A DNA stretch of 64,000 nt from Bacteroidia bacterium (GTDB lineage Bacteria > Bacteroidota > Bacteroidia > UKL13-3): assembly GCA_965279165.1 (NCBI GenBank), contig OZ257140.1:24262-88261 (forward strand). Direction: 5' to 3'. How positions within the stretch are numbered: the stretch's first letter is position 1; each line of letters starts with the position of its first letter. The notes below the pieces were generated by a model. It did not search any database. It worked only from the letters and a program-made list of their open reading frames with translations, and was not told where the DNA came from. Of the stretch, positions 13,354-49,090 are shown one piece after another. Position numbers and translations under genes: made by a program.

Positions 13354-13435
13354 GAGTGAGTGTGTATGGTAAAATGAGTGTAAAATGCTTTTATCTCACA
13401 CTCTAATCTCACATCCACACTCATTTTGTAGTCCC
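13354..13435. repeat. 82-bp nested-hairpin element, copy B (3' flank of tRNA-Arg)
   Basis: Immediately downstream of the tRNA 3' end, overlapping its last 7 nt. Inverted repeats aatgagtg..gtgtgt / ctcacatccacactcatt and an inner pair gagtgt/acactc. Confidence 0.85.
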
Positions 13436-13502
13436 AGCAGGATTCGAACCTGCGACCTACGGTTTAGAAAACCGGTGCTCTATCCAGCTGAGCTATGAGA
13501 CC
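13429..13502 (-). tRNA. tRNA-Arg (anticodon TCT)
   Basis: Cloverleaf read by hand: GGTCTCA TA GCTC AGCTGGATA GAGC A CCGGT TTTCTAA ACCGT AGGTC GCAGG TTCGAAT CCTGC TGGGACT A. G1-U72 wobble and a 27-43 mismatch noted. No encoded CCA. Confidence 0.85.
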
Positions 13503-21366: not shown

Positions 21367-22698
21367 CTACAACAATTGGTTTGCCAAATTCGCCAACTCA
21401 CTTCTTTCCCCTTTTTCTAACGTGATATGCGCATGCAAAGGATTATCGCGTATGCGGTCGATTAAATAGGAGAGTCCATTGGATTGTGAATCCAAGTAAG
21501 GTGTATCAATTTGGAAAATATCGCCGGTAAATACAATTTTAGTTCCTTCTCCGGCACGGGTAATGATGGTTTTTACTTCAAGCGGAGTGAGGTTTTGCGC
21601 TTCATCAATGATGAACATGATATTGGATAAACTTCTTCCACGTATATATGCCAAAGGTGTAACCAGCAATTTTTCCTGGTTAACCATATCTGTAATTTTT
21701 TGGTATTCCTTGTCGGTTTCTTTCCATTGGTTTTGAATCAATTTTAAATTATCCCATAATGGTTCCATGTAAGGATTAATTTTTGATTTGATATCGCCCG
21801 GTAGAAATCCAATATCTTTATTGCTTAATGGAATGATTGGACGTGCTAAATAAATTTGTCGGTAGTCTTGTTTTTGCTCCATGGCAGCCGCAAGTGCCAG
21901 CAATGTTTTTCCGGTACCTGCAACACCTTGTATGGTTACCAGTTGTACATGTGGATTAAGCACAGCATGCAAAGCAAACGTTTGTTCTGCATTGCGTGGT
22001 TTAATTCCATAGGCATTTCGTTTGTCAATTCGTTCTATACTTTCGTTGATTGGATTATAATAACACAATACAGAAGCTTTAGCGGTGCGCAACAAATAAT
22101 AATGGTTTGCAACCGGTTTTTCGTCAAACAACAAATCAAACGAAATAAAACCTTCGGCATAAATCCGATCAATTACCGATTGCTTTACATTTTCGATAAT
22201 GGTTTTCCCGGTATGTAAATGGTCTACATTCTTAATCTTACCTGTTTCATAATCTTCTGCCAAAAGGTTTAATGATTTAGCCTTTAAACGCAGGTTAACA
22301 TCTTTGGTAACCATGATTACTTTACGGCCCGGAAATTCTTCCCGCATTGCCAAAGCAGCATTCAGAATACGGTGATCTGCCTTGCGTTCGCCAAATACTT
22401 TTTCGGCGTCGATGCTCGCGCTTTGTTGCATGACCACTTTAAACTTACCACGACTCCTTCCATTAATCGGAATCCAATCGCTAAGGGTATATTCTCCGGA
22501 TAGTTTGTCGAGGTAACGGATAAATTCCCTTGCCTCAAAATTGATGGTATCGTTGCCTTTTTTAAAATTATCTAATTCCTCTAATACCGTGATTGGGATT
22601 GCTACATCGTGTTCCTGAAAATTCTTTATTGCATTGTGATCGTAAAGTATAACAGAGGTATCGAGTACAAATATTTTTCTCTCTTCTTTTTTCGCCAT
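21367..22698 (-). CDS. PIN-domain/PhoH-family ATPase fusion (PhoH2/YlaK-like)
   Basis: 443 aa. N-terminal PIN-like KIFVLDTSVILYD. PhoH ATPase with Walker A GVAGTGKT and IIDEAQN. Confidence 0.85.
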   Translation of the reverse strand: MAKKEERKIFVLDTSVILYDHNAIKNFQEHDVAIPITVLEELDNFKKGNDTINFEAREFIRYLDKLSGEYTLSDWIPINGRSRGKFKVVMQQSASIDAEKVFGERKADHRILNAALAMREEFPGRKVIMVTKDVNLRLKAKSLNLLAEDYETGKIKNVDHLHTGKTIIENVKQSVIDRIYAEGFISFDLLFDEKPVANHYYLLRTAKASVLCYYNPINESIERIDKRNAYGIKPRNAEQTFALHAVLNPHVQLVTIQGVAGTGKTLLALAAAMEQKQDYRQIYLARPIIPLSNKDIGFLPGDIKSKINPYMEPLWDNLKLIQNQWKETDKEYQKITDMVNQEKLLVTPLAYIRGRSLSNIMFIIDEAQNLTPLEVKTIITRAGEGTKIVFTGDIFQIDTPYLDSQSNGLSYLIDRIRDNPLHAHITLEKGERSELANLANQLL

Positions 22699-22856
22699 GG
22701 TTTAAATCAATAATAAGTTCAAGATATAAGGTGCAAAATCAAGATGCCCTAAAAAGTTGTAAACAAATGTGCAAAGCTTGTAATCGCGTTAAATACAAGT
22801 AACGTGGTGTTAATACATTCTAAGATATTATATACATTTACAGCCAATTCACTTCC

Positions 22857-23807
22857 ATGAAATTCAAACTAGATTTTGAAATACCTGCTTCTAAGCAACA
22901 AATAAGTATTAAGAAACCAATATTACTGGCAGGTTCGTGTTTTGCCGAACATATCGGAAACAGATTACAAACCAGTAAATTTAATGTGGTCCTTAATCCG
23001 AATGGAATTTTATTTAACCCTATAAGTATTTGTAAAAGTATTGTAGATATTGTGGAAGAATCAATCCCTTCTGGGTTGGATTTATTTGAATACAACGGAG
23101 TTTGGTATTCGTGGCAACACCATGGAAAGTTTAATGCGCCAACAAAAGAAGTGCTTTTTGAACGTATTGTAAAGGAAAGAAAAGAGGCATTAGAACAGTT
23201 TAAAAATGCGGATTGGTTGGTAATTACATTTGGTAGTGCTTGGGTTTATGAACTTAAAGACAGCCATCATATAGTAGCAAACTGCCATAAGGTTCCTCAA
23301 AAACAATTTAACAAACGGTTATTGACCATTGAAGAGATTTCAAATGCATGTAAGTCGATATTAGAACATGAAAAGCTAAAAAATAAGAAAATTTTGTTTA
23401 CGGTAAGTCCGGTAAGATATATACGCGATGGATTGGTGGAAAATAACAGAAGTAAGGCCCACTTACTTTCTGCTGTCCACCAGATTTGTAGCACCTATTC
23501 AAATGCGTATTATTTTCCTGCGTATGAGATAGTTTTGGACGAACTACGGGATTACCGTTTTTTTGAAAAGGATATGGTACATCCGAATGAATTGGCAATT
23601 GATTATGTATTTGAAAAATTTGTTGAAACTTATGTGGATGCAGAAACGCAATTATTCATAAAAAACTGGACTGAAATTCAATTGGCCATGCATCATCGGC
23701 CAATTCATCCCGAATCAAATCAACACAAGGAGTTTATACGCAGTTATCAATCAAAATTAGACCAAATGATAATAAAGTATCCGGAACTGAATCTAAAGCT
23801 GCATTAG
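22857..23807 (+). CDS. GSCFA-domain protein
   Basis: 316 aa. Contains the eponymous motif LLAGSCFAEHIG near the N-terminus. Confidence 0.75.
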   Translation: MKFKLDFEIPASKQQISIKKPILLAGSCFAEHIGNRLQTSKFNVVLNPNGILFNPISICKSIVDIVEESIPSGLDLFEYNGVWYSWQHHGKFNAPTKEVLFERIVKERKEALEQFKNADWLVITFGSAWVYELKDSHHIVANCHKVPQKQFNKRLLTIEEISNACKSILEHEKLKNKKILFTVSPVRYIRDGLVENNRSKAHLLSAVHQICSTYSNAYYFPAYEIVLDELRDYRFFEKDMVHPNELAIDYVFEKFVETYVDAETQLFIKNWTEIQLAMHHRPIHPESNQHKEFIRSYQSKLDQMIIKYPELNLKLH

Positions 23808-23879
23808 GATACTCTTCAACGCATGAATAGGGTAGAGGTGCAATGGATATGATTTGAAATAGCTTTTGTCCATTTTAAG

Positions 23880-24041
23880 CCTTAAATTCGCCCCACTTTA
23901 TTGGTCTCGTAGTACAACGCCTGCCCGACCGACATAGTCGGGCGGGGATAGTATACCTGCCTGCTAATAAGCAGGGAAGTTTCCGAAGCTTTTGATTCAG
24001 GTTCCCTGCCCGACTGCGTCACGCAGGCGGGGATTCCTGAC
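23880..24041 (+). pseudogene. Disrupted copy of tRNA-Arg(CCG): leader plus nt 1-64, split by three hairpin insertions
   Basis: Same 23-nt leader (ccttaaattcgccccactttatt) and same tRNA segments as 24303-24389. Interrupted at 23920-23946, 23956-23975 and 24005-24031 by cctgcc...g(c/g)(a/g)gg hairpins. The 3' acceptor strand is missing. Confidence 0.8.
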
Positions 24042-24056
24042 AAAATCAGTAAAATT

Positions 24057-24302
24057 ATGTTCATAGTTTATATCATAGAAAGTGAGAAAGATGGAATCTG
24101 GTATACTGGATTTACACAAGACCTTCAAAGAAGAATCAAAGAGCATAACACAGGTAAATCAAAATTCACTTCAGGTCATATGCCTTGGAAACTAATTTAT
24201 TCGGAAACAGTTGAAGAAAGAATTGACGCAAGAAAGAAAGAAAAATATTTTAAGAGCGCAGCAGGTAAAAAGTATATTTCAATACAAATTTCAAAAAGTT
24301 AA
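24057..24302 (+). CDS. Small GIY-YIG nuclease-family protein (UPF0213/COG2827-like)
   Basis: 81 aa. FIVYIIES..GIWYTGFTQDLQRRIKEHN is the GIY-x10-YIG-type motif plus a conserved Arg and Glu. Confidence 0.8.
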   Translation: MFIVYIIESEKDGIWYTGFTQDLQRRIKEHNTGKSKFTSGHMPWKLIYSETVEERIDARKKEKYFKSAAGKKYISIQISKS

Positions 24303-24325
24303 CCTTAAATTCGCCCCACTTTATT

Positions 24326-24397
24326 GGTCTCGTAGTACAACGGATAGTATAGAAGTTTCCGAAGCTTTTGATTCAGGTTCGATTCCTGACGAGACCA
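24326..24397 (+). tRNA. tRNA-Arg (anticodon CCG)
   Basis: Cloverleaf read by hand: GGTCTCG TA GTAC AACGGATA GTAT A GAAGT TTCCGAA GCTTT TGAT TCAGG TTCGATT CCTGA CGAGACC A. Perfect acceptor stem. No encoded CCA. Confidence 0.85.
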
Positions 24398-24442
24398 CAT
24401 ATTTATTCTTGCGTAAGCGCTTAACATAAAAGATTATTTCAA

Positions 24443-24690
24443 TTCAGGTTCCCTGCCTGACTGCGTCACGCAGGCAGGGATTCCTGACGAGACCACGATT
24501 TATTCGCGCATAAGTTCTAAGAATAAAAGCAACTTTCAATTCAGGTTCCCTGCCTGACTGCGTCACGCAGGCAGGGATTCCTGACGAGACCACGATTTAT
24601 TCGCGCATAAGTTCTAAGAATAAAAGCAACTTTTAATTCAAGTTCCCTGCCTGACTGCGTCGCGCAGGCGGGGATTCCTGACAAGACCAC
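24443..24690 (+). repeat. Three 97-bp repeats of the tRNA-Arg(CCG) 3' half with a hairpin inside the T-loop
   Basis: Units start at 24443, 24540 and 24637. Each reads ttcaggttc + cctgcctgactgcgtcacgcaggcagg + gattcctgacgagaccac + a ~45-nt trailer homologous to the trailer of the intact tRNA (24398-24442). Confidence 0.9.
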
Positions 24691-24750
24691 ATGAATCAGA
24701 GTGAGAGTGAGAGTGGGAGCGGTTCCAACGATTGAATTGTATCAGAAGAA

Positions 24751-24789
24751 GTGTGAATCATGTAATTTAATTACTTGATAATGTAATAC
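24751..24789 (+). promoter_or_regulatory. Bipartite motif GTGTGAATCATGTAA-N16-TGTAATAC (site 1)
   Basis: Starts 99 nt upstream of ATG 24850. The same architecture occurs at 25441 and 35105. Confidence 0.5.
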
Positions 24790-24849
24790 CCCAACAAAAC
24801 TTGAAGCAGACATTTGGAAGGTGAAAATATTTTCACAAACATCATCCAA

Positions 24850-25347
24850 ATGAAAATTATACTTCGCCTTGTGTTGAGCCTGTTTCTTTATATGCCAATA
24901 CTAAATGCCCAGGTTTCTGTTCAAATAAATATTGGTAGTCCTCCAATGTGGGGCCCCGTAGGTTACCAGGAAGCACGTTATTATTACATTCCGGATGTGG
25001 AGGCTTACTATGATATCCATACCTCTATGTTCATTTACTACAGTGGCGGAATATGGATGCATCGCAGCTATCTGCCAGGTCGTTATCGGAATTATGATTT
25101 GTACTCAGGTTACAAAGTGGTTTTAACCAATTATCATGGCGATAGGCCATATTCAAATTATTCGCATCACAAACACCAATATGCGAAAGGCTATAAAGGT
25201 TCGTACCAACAAAATAGAGGTCATAAGCCGGGAAATAACAATGGCAATGTACACCAAAACAGTTCATCAAATCACGATCAACATGCAGGAAATAATGGCA
25301 ACAAAAATCAAAAACAATCTAACGGTAAAGGAAAAAGCCAACACTAA
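24850..25347 (+). CDS. Hypothetical secreted protein with Asn/Gly/His/Gln-rich tail
   Basis: Start placed at ATG 24850 (MKIILRLVLSLFLYMPILNAQ signal peptide). Tyr/Trp-rich core and a low-complexity C-terminus. Confidence 0.6.
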   Translation: MKIILRLVLSLFLYMPILNAQVSVQINIGSPPMWGPVGYQEARYYYIPDVEAYYDIHTSMFIYYSGGIWMHRSYLPGRYRNYDLYSGYKVVLTNYHGDRPYSNYSHHKHQYAKGYKGSYQQNRGHKPGNNNGNVHQNSSSNHDQHAGNNGNKNQKQSNGKGKSQH

Positions 25348-25404
25348 CAAGTGAGTTAATCTTTATTCAATTTCTTATCCCCTCATACGCTTTAATTAAA
25401 CCAA

Positions 25405-25436
25405 ACACCCGGTCAGATTGCCCGGGTGTTTTTTTT
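25405..25436 (+). terminator. Rho-independent terminator
   Basis: acacccgg-tcagattgc-ccgggtgt followed by a T8 run. Confidence 0.85.
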
Positions 25437-25440
25437 AAGG

Positions 25441-25479
25441 TGTGAATCATGTAACTAGTTTTATTAGTTCTATAACACT
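25441..25479 (+). promoter_or_regulatory. Bipartite motif GTGTGAATCATGTAA-N16-TATAACAC (site 2)
   Basis: Starts 101 nt upstream of the csbD-like ATG 25542, directly after the preceding terminator. Confidence 0.5.
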
Positions 25480-25541
25480 TGGAAGAGCATATACCCTCAC
25501 TTTTGAATCTTAATTAACCATTTCAATAAAAATCAAATACA

Positions 25542-25730
25542 ATGAAAAACACAACAGAATTAACAGGTAACTGGAATGAAATCAAAGGGAAGCTAAAGCA
25601 AAAATTTGCCTTGTTAAGCGACAATGATTTATTGCTTGTGGAAGGTAAGAACGAAGAGTTGCTTGGCCGTCTGCAAATTAAATTAGGCAAAACCAAAGAC
25701 GAATTAGCTAAACTAATCTCGGAATTATAA
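25542..25730 (+). CDS. CsbD-family stress protein
   Basis: 62 aa. [36 protein letters not shown] matches the CsbD pattern. Confidence 0.8.
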
Positions 25731-25758
25731 ACATTAATCAAGTTTTAAAAATAACACC

Positions 25759-26316
25759 ATGAAAAAATCATTTTTAATTATATTACTTATTCTGTCTGGA
25801 TTAGGTAAATCACATGCCCAAGAGAGTTATGGCAATACTTTAAACTTCGGAATTGGGGTAGGCGGATACTCCGGGTATTACGGTTATGTTAATCGTTCAA
25901 TGCCGGTATTGCACCTTAACTATGAGTTTAATGCTGCAAAAAATTTCACCCTGGCTCCATTCATTTCTTTCTACACATACACCAATACTTATTGGTGGGG
26001 AAATAACAACAGACCGTATGCATATTATACTTACAGAGAAACCGTTATTCCAATTGGCCTAAAAGGTACATTTTATGCCGATCAATTGCTGGCCTTAAAC
26101 AACAAATGGGATATTTATTTGGCCGGATCCTTAGGATTTGCATTGGTAGAAGCTTCTTGGGAAAATGGGTATGATGGAGATAAGAATTATTACCATAGAG
26201 GTAGTAACTTATTTCTTGATATTCATATTGGTGCCGAATACCATTTTAGCAAGAGAATAGGTGGCTTTGTTGATTTATCAAGCGGAGTTTCTACGATTGG
26301 AATTGCCATTCATTAA
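25759..26316 (+). CDS. Small outer-membrane beta-barrel protein
   Basis: 185 aa with signal peptide. Alternating aromatic/glycine beta-strand pattern and a C-terminal aromatic-rich strand. Confidence 0.6.
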   Translation: MKKSFLIILLILSGLGKSHAQESYGNTLNFGIGVGGYSGYYGYVNRSMPVLHLNYEFNAAKNFTLAPFISFYTYTNTYWWGNNNRPYAYYTYRETVIPIGLKGTFYADQLLALNNKWDIYLAGSLGFALVEASWENGYDGDKNYYHRGSNLFLDIHIGAEYHFSKRIGGFVDLSSGVSTIGIAIH

Positions 26317-48664: not shown

Positions 48665-48716
48665 ATGATTTAGATTAATCACATTGCTAAATCATGTACT
48701 ATGTATTGCATAGTAC
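48665..48716. promoter_or_regulatory. Two adjacent inverted repeats upstream of padR (candidate operators)
   Basis: atgatttag-N13-ctaaatcat (48665-48695) and gtactatg-tattg-catagtac (48696-48716). They end 45 nt before the padR ATG. Confidence 0.5.
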
Positions 48717-48760
48717 TAAAAGTTCTAATACCTTTGTTCTGTCATTAAGAATAAAAGCAC

Positions 48761-49090
48761 ATGAATCTGGAAAACGCAAGGCAACAAATGAAAAAAGGGG
48801 TTCTCGAGTATTGTGCTCTATCTATTATTTCGAGAGGAGAAGTTTATGCCTCCGATATTTTGGAAGAGATGAAAACTGCAAATTTAATTGTGGTAGAAGG
48901 AACCTTATATCCCATGTTAACCCGTTTAAAAAATGAAGGTTTGTTAACGTATAAATGGGTTGAATCCAAATCAGGCCCTCCACGCAAATATTTTCAATTA
49001 ACCGAACAAGGAACCTCTTTTATGCACGAATTAAAATCTACCTGGAACGAATTGGTAGAAGGTGTTCAAACAATTACAAACAACAAATAA
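48761..49090 (+). CDS. PadR-family transcriptional regulator
   Basis: 109 aa. GVLEYCALSIIS..YASDILEEM...EGTLYPMLTRLKNEGLL winged-helix pattern. Confidence 0.87.
   Translation: MNLENARQQMKKGVLEYCALSIISRGEVYASDILEEMKTANLIVVEGTLYPMLTRLKNEGLLTYKWVESKSGPPRKYFQLTEQGTSFMHELKSTWNELVEGVQTITNNK

Follow-up and report, generated by a model that had tools for sequence, protein, structure and literature searches.

The 64-kb window studied here (64,000 nucleotides of contig OZ257140.1 from a Bacteroidia bacterium of the lineage UKL13-3, numbered from its first letter) contains a tRNA-Arg(CCG) gene that is accompanied by a small nuclease gene and by pieces of the tRNA itself. Along this locus (23880-24691) we find, in order, a 5' copy of the tRNA with three palindromic inserts, an open reading frame (ORF) coding for a GIY-YIG nuclease, the intact tRNA and three 97-bp 3' fragments. 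All of these elements had been listed in a preliminary description of the locus, and all were recovered at their coordinates. They are given below with their strand; a slash within a motif or between two tRNA positions marks the insertion point, and related loci are denoted by L numbers.

23880-23902 (+): leader copy 1, 23 nt, CCTTAAATTCGCCCCACTTTATT, identical to 24303-24325 and adjoining the ancestral upstream flank (GSCFA gene)
23903-24041 (+): redundant, disrupted copy of tRNA-Arg(CCG) covering nt 1-65; its four blocks, once rejoined, match the intact gene over that stretch at 100% identity
23920-23946 (+): first palindrome (27 nt, CCTGCCCGACCGACATAGTCGGGCGGG), which interrupts the D-loop after nt 17; folded as DNA it reaches -10.6 kcal/mol (z -4.5)
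23956-23975 (+): second palindrome (20 nt, CCTGCCTGCTAATAAGCAGG), which separates nt 26 from nt 27 where D-stem and anticodon stem join; fold z -3.9
24005-24031 (+): third palindrome (27 nt, CCTGCCCGACTGCGTCACGCAGGCGGG), which parts C56 from G57 of the T-loop (GGTTC/GATTCC), precisely the family-wide site; fold z -4.4
24042-24056 (+): linker, 15 nt; its first 8 nt (AAAATCAG) equal the start of the native tRNA trailer at the empty site L204 and resemble the trailer after repeat 3
24057-24302 (+): GIY-YIG nuclease gene, 246 nt, 81 amino acids, Pfam PF01541 match
24303-24325 (+): leader copy 2, identical to copy 1, beginning directly after the stop codon of the ORF
24326-24397/8 (+): intact tRNA-Arg(CCG), called by ARAGORN and by Rfam RF00005 (61.8 bits)
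24399/24401-24691 (+): three tandem 97-bp units, each made of a spacer, tRNA nt ~41-55, a 27-nt T-loop palindrome and tRNA nt 56-73
24452-24478, 24549-24575 and 24646-24672 (+): T-loop palindromes of the 97-bp units, 27 nt each
24692-24722 (+): native tRNA trailer, TGAATCAGAGTGAGAGTGAGAGTGGGAG, common to the relatives L001, L204 and L191

The four blocks of the disrupted copy measure 17, 9, 29 and 10 nt and are split by inserts of 27, 20 and 27 nt, and the 3' strand of the acceptor (8 nt, GAGACCAC) is missing. The preliminary description had rightly recognised segments identical to the intact gene, and an intact tRNA kept beside a displaced, disrupted copy; its extent for that copy, nt 1-64, has to be corrected to 1-65, and the single nucleotide that it had placed between the stop codon and the second leader does not exist. 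The arrangement exceeds what chance would give. For the motif CCTGCCYG, 1.4 occurrences would be expected in the window and 10 are present, 8 of them at this locus. Folded as DNA, the inserts give hairpins with z-scores of -3.9 to -5.3 relative to shuffled sequences, and their G+C content is 55-78% in a surrounding window of 37%. A scan of 22500-26000 against Rfam at E<=1 returned the tRNA model alone, with no known RNA motif for the hairpins.

The best explanation of this layout is that the original tRNA-Arg(CCG) survives as two remnants, the palindrome-riddled 5' copy on the left flank and the outermost 3' fragment on the right flank, and that the ORF, the second leader, the intact tRNA and the two further fragments lie between them. 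The outermost 97-bp unit (24595-24691) is the most diverged of the three and abuts the native, ancestral trailer. The 8-nt match of the linker start (AAAATCAG) to the start of the L204 trailer is suggestive of a 5' copy that would formerly have been a complete tRNA plus trailer, its 8-nt acceptor strand having been lost later. The locus as a whole is best viewed as a short tandem series of tRNA units that includes one ORF, and a single unit has stayed free of palindromes. Leader copy 1 contains TAAATTCG, a sequence close to the consensus of the -7 promoter box in Bacteroidota (TAnnTTTG), and TAAATTTG stands at the equivalent place in the relative L204; judging from this promoter-like box, the whole array probably belongs to the tRNA transcription unit. 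An origin of the 97-bp spacer from the 3' end of the ORF was considered and dropped, the resemblance being weak (that of unit 1 was equalled by 15 of 500 shuffles, and unit 2 gave nothing significant). A transposon in which terminal inverted repeats (TIRs) enclose the ORF was rejected as well, since every CCTGCCYG arm in the window is part of a complete hairpin, with no separate arm on either side of the ORF.

The 81-residue product of the ORF matches the Pfam GIY-YIG family PF01541 with E=2.3e-16 and 60.3 bits (cut-off 22.6). The catalytic Tyr, Tyr, Arg, His and Glu are present at canonical spacing (Y5, Y16, R26, H30 and E62), which presumably corresponds to Y6/Y17/R27/H31 of I-TevI, and Y5, Y16, G18, R26, H30, N31 and E62 are invariant among 30 homologues. 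An AlphaFold2 (AF2) model was confident (pLDDT 93.8); the closest structures were the UPF0213 proteins 1ZG2 (E=3e-11) and 1YWL, followed by the nuclease domain of Slx1 (TM about 0.67), with I-TevI and UvrC farther away. By sequence and fold, the protein is a GIY-YIG superfamily member of the UPF0213/COG2827 (Slx1-like) branch and a predicted structure-specific nuclease, in agreement with the COG2827-type gene of the preliminary description. The gene is intact and under purifying selection. Between the window gene and its closest relatives the ratio of nonsynonymous to synonymous substitution rates (dN/dS) is 0.10-0.26 and synonymous sites (dS) are near saturation, from which it follows that the gene is functional and that its association with tRNA-Arg(CCG) is old. 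The family comprises 5,781 clusters (50% identity) at E<=1e-10, and the gene has no match in PADLOC, PHROGs or NCBIfam, that is, it belongs to no defence or phage family catalogued there.

Further observations concern the relatives of this protein. The window nuclease is 74% identical to its counterpart at L001; the GSCFA protein P0061, probably from the same genome as the L001-like P0005, is only 50% identical to the GSCFA protein of the window (22857-23807). The nuclease of L207 is 83% identical, and L207 shares its sample of origin with L203, where the tRNA is missing from the GSCFA locus. An identity of the nuclease above that of GSCFA may reflect stronger constraint or a more recent transfer of the cassette. 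An 80-aa ORF elsewhere in the window (48694-48936, +) scored weakly against the profile of the family (E=8.5e-4 within the window); it overlaps a PadR-like ORF (48761-49090) in another frame and is probably a chance match.

To place the locus in context, one genome per species was scanned for the nuclease, which gave 492 confirmed loci, and the best 80 of these protein-selected loci were examined. In 68 of the 80, an intact same-strand tRNA stands no more than 200 nt from the nuclease gene, and a single locus has one that close on the opposite strand; in 7 of the 12 exceptions the gene is within about 230 nt of a contig end. The adjacency to tRNA genes that the preliminary description had mentioned is therefore real and very strong. 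The tRNA is upstream of the ORF in 50 loci, where a palindrome-bearing 3' fragment stands 3' of the ORF, and downstream in 18, so that the layout of the window (disrupted 5' copy, ORF, intact tRNA) is that of a minority. Twenty-one anticodons are represented, in hosts that include Bacteroidota, Ignavibacteria, Planctomycetes, Marinimicrobia and several lineages of the candidate phyla radiation (CPR); among the carriers are the cultured strains Jiulongibacter sediminis JN14-9 (L055) and Flagellimonas alvinocaridis SCR12 (L073). Nearly every locus has a second, partial copy of the same local tRNA across the ORF, in blocks that are mostly 100% identical, and in nearly every locus the alignment of the fragment breaks at nt 55/56 of the 73-nt tRNA, inside the T-loop. 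Often the tRNA terminator is followed immediately by the start of the ORF, or the end of the ORF coincides with position +1 of the tRNA, a geometry that points to co-transcription with the tRNA.

The break in the T-loop is the site of the palindromic insert. In a BLAST-based census over these protein-selected loci, inserts with the termini CCTGCC...GGCAGG are placed exactly between T-loop C56 and R57 (GGTTC/GAWTCC) in 43 distinct cases, about 11 lie at the boundary of D-loop and D-stem (21/22, GGWTA/GA), and a few at 9/10, 17/18, 26/27 and 44-46. With perhaps one exception, these are positions that are unpaired in the cloverleaf and directly 5' of a G, about 60 of 65 falling in loops or at loop-stem junctions. 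Removal of the insert restores the tRNA sequence exactly, and no target-site duplication was found. The termini CCTGCC[Y]GAC...GTC[R]GGCAGG are kept, with a variable interior and total lengths of 20-108 nt. The commonest 27-mer occurs in both orientations (L011, L016, L040, L043 and L057 have the reverse complement of the form seen in the window and L039), inserts are found in tandem (L006, L026, L029, L051) or nested (L037), and long ones of 53-108 nt (L002, L018, L023, L051, L060) have the same termini around an AT-rich interior. The hairpins had at first been put down to decay of the displaced copy, a view that we abandon in favour of a conserved palindrome inserted precisely, without duplication, at C56/R57 of many tRNA identities.

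In 1.2 Mb of retrieved DNA, 181 of 240 palindromes lie in tRNA loop contexts, and the rest are for the most part tandem or nested copies in those positions. Neither there nor in the 64-kb window were they scattered over many unrelated places, the palindromes being essentially confined to tRNA-derived contexts. In the redundant tRNA copies the T-loop is split by the palindrome, and an intact, presumably cleavable copy stands alongside. The unifying signature of the family is the site of insertion, T-loop C56/R57 in the first place and D-loop 21/22 in the second, and the placement of the insert seems more conserved than its sequence. At L080 (2700-2770), from a metagenome-assembled genome (MAG) of Melioribacter roseus, a different palindrome, TCCCGAAGGGATCCCTTTGGGA, occupies the same C56/R57 position. 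The palindrome arms of the window, CCTGCCTGAC/GTCAGGCAGG (23920-24031, 24452-24672), resemble the T-stem plus first acceptor base of tRNA-Arg(CCG) (TTCAGG ... CCTGAC), which hints that the palindrome may have arisen by fold-back duplication of the T-arm of an Arg tRNA.

Palindromes also occur on their own. Scanning metagenomes for the T-loop palindrome yielded at least 120 loci, many of which show an intact tRNA, a short spacer and a 3' fragment with the palindrome, as in the 97-bp units of the window. Tandem whole-tRNA units without an ORF are found at L150 (278-bp units) and L191 (300-bp units of tRNA-Arg(CCG) with a window-like trailer), and L198 has five 92-bp units, again without ORF. On one 18-kb contig, a solo palindrome locus at one tRNA coexists with a gene-bearing array at another. 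No other conserved ORF adjoins these palindromes, and no HUH (Y1) transposase was found there. Since palindrome-bearing fragments and tandem tRNA units occur without the gene, the element has two parts; the 97-bp repeats of the window belong to the gene-free class of palindrome fragments.

Comparison of related loci reveals a dynamic system: some sites are empty, the gene moves from one tRNA identity to another, units form tandem arrays, some gene copies are pseudogenes, and the positions of the palindromes vary by lineage. An empty site exists among the relatives: L204 presents the PhoH/PIN-GSCFA neighbourhood, a tRNA identical to that of L001 and the GAGTGA-rich trailer, with no ORF, fragment or palindrome, and the site is thus polymorphic for presence or absence of the gene. 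At the equivalent place of L203 and L205 the tRNA itself is absent. The nearest GSCFA homologue is only 53% identical, which sets the comparison of empty and filled sites (L204, L001) at the level of order or family. Within the Chitinophagaceae, proteins 76-82% identical stand at Glu-TTC, Gln-TTG, Leu-CAA and Leu-GAG genes, each element flanked by fragments of the local tRNA and the local terminator, and homology between these elements runs from the ATG, right after the T-tract of the terminator, to near codon 78. Arrays of 2-4 units occur at L005, L006, L009 and L025, L066 and L068 differ by one unit, and about 10 of 101 gene copies are truncated or interrupted.

The window layout is kept in its five closest Arg-CCG loci, with differences in the palindrome positions and in the end of the 5' copy:

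Window: palindromes at 17/18, 26/27 and 56/57; 5' copy ends at 65
L207: palindrome at 21/22; 5' copy ends at about 47
L001: palindromes at 21/22 and 56/57; 5' copy ends at 65
L208/L209: palindromes at 9/10 and 15/16 and two at 44/45; 5' copy ends at 57
L003: palindromes at 9/10, 25/26 and 56/57; 5' copy ends at 61-62

A breakpoint at position 64, proposed in the preliminary description as a feature to be sought across the family, is no family feature, as the end of the 5' copy differs between these close relatives. At L208 (1280-1960) and L209 (880-1560), the 5' copy and the downstream 3' fragment have the same double palindrome at 44/45; either a palindrome-bearing tRNA was split by the segment of ORF plus tRNA, or the flanking pieces were homogenised by gene conversion. 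At L044 (2770-3300, Lacibacter) both copies of tRNA-Leu(CAA) have a T-loop palindrome, the upstream one with a further insertion of ~45 nt, and no intact tRNA-Leu(CAA) copy lies within 6 kb; here, the element may have inactivated a dispensable isoacceptor.

A few observations on the surroundings and on annotation remain to be recorded. The ORFs between 21.3 and 27.1 kb of the window encode PhoH/PIN, GSCFA, GIY-YIG, CsbD and YtxH proteins and small proteins without assignment. The second tRNA of the window, tRNA-Arg(TCT) at 13428-13502 (-), has no nuclease gene, fragment or palindrome nearby, which shows that not every tRNA gene of this genome is occupied. The GAGTGA-rich trailer 3' of tRNA-Arg(CCG), GAGTGAGAGTGAGAGTG, is found in the window (24692-24722), L001 (3372-3400), L204 (3590-3620) and L191; its conservation in distant relatives with GSCFA proteins only ~50% identical is unusually high for a tRNA trailer. 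Many homologues (L004, L005, L010, L012, L019, L038, L040, L047 and others) end in G-S-L-P-D/A/E, a tail that the window protein does not have. An ORF that lies upstream of the fragment commonly runs on through the copied T-stem (GGTTC) and ends, stop codon included, within the palindrome (CCTGCCYGAC TGA), and these two stretches encode the tail. At the other end, gene callers prolong many proteins of the family by 20-60 aa into upstream sequence derived from the tRNA, and ARAGORN miscalls palindrome-bearing fragments as tRNAs (L029 'tRNA-Ser', L143). A large share of the matches (L012-L080, L083-L202) lies within a few hundred bases of contig ends, indicating that these repeat-rich tRNA loci break short-read assemblies.

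The interpretation that we prefer, tentatively and with close to even credence, is that of a two-part selfish element residing in tRNA transcription units and spreading by nuclease-stimulated recombination, a mechanism that we infer. Its first part would be the minimal Slx1/UPF0213-type GIY-YIG gene, which runs in the direction of the tRNA and probably owes its expression to the tRNA promoter or to read-through of the terminator, and its second part the short palindromic DNA element with the termini CCTGCC...GGCAGG. Mechanistically, the putative nuclease would nick or cut tRNA-gene DNA at loop positions (consensus about GGWTM/GA), possibly on cloverleaf or cruciform DNA, as expected of a structure-specific Slx1-like enzyme. 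Recombinational repair would then duplicate the tRNA and its terminator in tandem, leaving the nuclease gene between the two; for the GIY-YIG enzyme SegB and phage tRNA genes, such amplification has been demonstrated by experiment (PMC2330249; PMC13096335). In turn, the palindrome would be copied into the redundant copy, splitting the target site and inactivating that copy, while selection would retain one intact tRNA.

Several observations weigh against this interpretation. The 81-aa protein is a catalytic domain alone and lacks the DNA-binding module of homing endonucleases, which makes sequence-specific homing by the protein by itself doubtful. If the T-loop were the target, the intact neighbouring tRNA and every other tRNA gene of the cell would be targets as well. 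The model does not account for the origin of the palindrome or the chemistry of its insertion, and inserts outside the T-loop cannot be copied by simple homology. Duplication of the new local tRNA after a move between tRNA identities is not predicted by ordinary homing, and that the gene has long persisted at one and the same tRNA under purifying selection is no less compatible with a maintained function than with drive. Among the metagenome loci with at least 1 kb on both sides, the nuclease gene is present in only 6 of 35 and absent from 29, a count that is biased by the tendency of gene-bearing loci to break assemblies. Finally, no vehicle of transfer is evident, as the element is almost absent from phage and viral collections: among 2.9 million viral contigs, 2 show the T-loop palindrome pattern, neither of them with a tRNA or the gene, and only 11 phage records have a homologue (<=40% identity), none of those checked adjoining a tRNA.

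Part of this evidence would also be expected if the nuclease were simply a maintained gene, useful to the host or addictive and co-transcribed with tRNAs, with the fragments and palindromes as by-products that play no role in spread; it could, for example, process R-loops, cruciforms or branched DNA at very highly transcribed tRNA genes. In favour of this, carriers that share the tRNA-Arg(CCG) arrangement differ with a dN/dS of about 0.1 and saturated synonymous sites, co-orientation with the tRNA is strict, the ORF ends imply co-transcription, and the family is very large (5,781 clusters) and akin to Slx1 and the cellular UPF0213 proteins. However, the presence of the gene is patchy (L204 is empty, L203 and L205 are without the tRNA there), it moves between tRNA identities and forms arrays and pseudogene copies, neither NCBIfam nor PADLOC offers a match, and the loss of the intact tRNA copy to palindromes at L044 looks harmful. 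We consider a host function, in this form or that of the role just named, unlikely. Rather unlikely, too, is a reversal of the roles, in which the palindrome is a mobile mini-transposon made of TIRs only and the GIY-YIG protein a transposase-like nuclease acting in trans, which inserts it into unpaired cloverleaf positions of single-stranded DNA; the tRNA duplications and arrays would be, with similarly low probability, collateral repair products, and the nuclease gene a hitch-hiker beside its substrates. Much of the census is in line with this idea: precise inserts without target duplication, conserved termini around interiors that give lengths of 20-108 nt, nested and tandem inserts in both orientations, and about 60 of 65 sites at loops or loop-stem junctions directly 5' of a G. 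The many solo palindrome loci without the gene, the 18-kb contig with a solo and a gene-bearing locus, and the Slx1-like, structure-specific fold agree with it as well. But GIY-YIG enzymes are hydrolytic, and we know of no strand-transfer activity among them and of no GIY-YIG transposase; the palindromes have not spread to other intergenic sites as repetitive extragenic palindromic (REP) elements or miniature inverted-repeat transposable elements (MITEs) have, and flips in orientation can come from inversion between the arms and need no re-insertion.

A quite improbable alternative gives the fragments themselves an active part. The hairpin-split tRNA pieces, as transcripts or single-stranded DNA, would serve as guides that anneal to the complementary strand of the intact tRNA gene, forming a three-way junction whose third arm is the hairpin at the insert position; the Slx1-like nuclease, having no DNA-binding domain, would recognise hairpin and branch point and cut there, in what would be a structure-guided programmable system, an equally improbable extension. 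It would explain why every nuclease gene is accompanied by local tRNA pieces with the same hairpin, even pieces of only 15 nt, why the hairpin termini are conserved with freely varying flanks, and why solo fragments persist without the gene. The partial repeats might, very improbably, be attL/attR scars of tyrosine-integrase elements that crossed over in the T-loop, with the GIY-YIG gene as leftover cargo. Crossover in the T-loop with regeneration of the 3' part of the tRNA is reportedly classical for integrases, and the series of intact tRNA, insert and partial 3' copy mimics attL/attR. Yet there is no recombinase within 2.5 kb on either side in the window, and no tyrosine or serine recombinase gene, as integrase-type tRNA islands would have, among the ORFs at 21.3-27.1 kb. 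The 'element' would be only about 300 bp with a repeat spacing of 92-324 bp, the mirrored 5' layout, the inserts in the D-loop and at 9/10 and the conserved palindrome are not features of integrases, and none of 200 loci showed an integrase-bearing island bounded by the same palindrome. Just as improbable is an ordinary tandem tRNA duplication, older than the nuclease gene and now decaying, which the preliminary description had named as a scenario contrary to its own. Tandem whole-tRNA units without an ORF do exist (L150, L191), but these also have the palindrome at C56/R57, the blocks between inserts are 100% identical to the intact gene, unlike the product of random decay, and the same architecture recurs at 21 anticodons in several phyla.

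If the two-part selfish element is the correct interpretation, bacterial chromosomes would harbour minimal selfish elements of a class that is very abundant, its proteins forming thousands of clusters, whose targets are the most conserved genes of the cell, and which has gone unnoticed because each unit measures only about 300-800 bp. The large and uncharacterised UPF0213/COG2827 family would gain a concrete, testable substrate, namely tRNA-gene loops and a defined palindrome, and bacteria would have their own equivalent of two things known elsewhere, the archaeal tRNA genes that are fragmented or contain introns and the GC palindromes that are mobile in yeast mitochondria. Were the structure-guided version true, the nuclease would be among the smallest programmable ones known. 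There are practical consequences too, in the form of broken assemblies, ORFs extended into tRNA sequence and false or missed tRNA calls (L029, L143). A full-text literature search, which did not cover all journals, found no description of tRNA-linked UPF0213 genes or of bacterial T-loop palindromic inserts.

Among known systems, the window locus is most like free-standing homing endonuclease genes, and loci of this type may be free-standing nuclease-driven selfish elements, with a possibly new mechanism of insertion. Presence/absence polymorphism at a conserved site, as at L204, is shared with such genes; the DNA-binding module is not. The closest likeness is SegB, a GIY-YIG homing endonuclease in the tRNA gene cluster of phages T4 and T6, which cuts tRNA-gene DNA and promotes its own inheritance (PMC2330249), and which drives tandem amplification of the tRNA-plus-segB unit via homologous recombination (PMC13096335). 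SegB, on the other hand, is a phage protein with a C-terminal DNA-binding region, whereas the window protein is a bare 81-aa domain of the UPF0213/Slx1 branch encoded in a chromosome, and its family stands at many tRNA identities together with a conserved palindromic insert, the latter not being reported for SegB loci. In sequence and fold, Slx1 and the bacterial UPF0213/COG2827 proteins (YhbQ, BH0048, EF2693) are closest. Slx1 cuts branched DNA, flaps and stem-loops at junctions of single- and double-stranded DNA and needs Slx4; for these proteins, our literature search found no tRNA linkage or palindrome partner described.

In fungal mitochondria, GIY-YIG and LAGLIDADG ORFs insert at gene ends together with a replacement terminus, which restores an intact gene and leaves what was displaced as a fragment, and yeast mitochondrial DNA (mtDNA) has mobile short GC-rich palindromic clusters within AT-rich DNA. 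The combination of an endonuclease ORF with a copied part of its target, and of mobile GC-rich palindromes, is thus common to both settings; the organelle targets are protein-coding genes, whereas here they are bacterial tRNA genes and the palindrome is tied to tRNA loop positions. REP elements with their RAYT transposases, and the PATE/MITE derivatives of IS200/IS605, are likewise short imperfect palindromes without target duplication that flank a small dedicated nuclease gene. Those nucleases are HUH tyrosine transposases and their palindromes have many intergenic copies, in contrast to the GIY-YIG protein and the confinement of the palindromes to redundant tRNA pieces seen here. With MITEs the palindrome shares conserved TIRs around a variable interior, and it lacks their target duplication and genome-wide dispersal. 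As for the position of the inserts, the nearest parallel is archaeal: the non-canonical tRNA introns of Thermoproteales are reportedly short, hairpin-forming and located at 9/10, in the D-loop, at 25/26, in the variable loop and at 56/57. These introns are thought to be mobile, breaking up target sites, and are spliced by EndA. Both are thus short hairpin inserts at similar tRNA positions, but the archaeal ones lie in the functional gene, and the bacterial ones in truncated, redundant copies beside an intact one.

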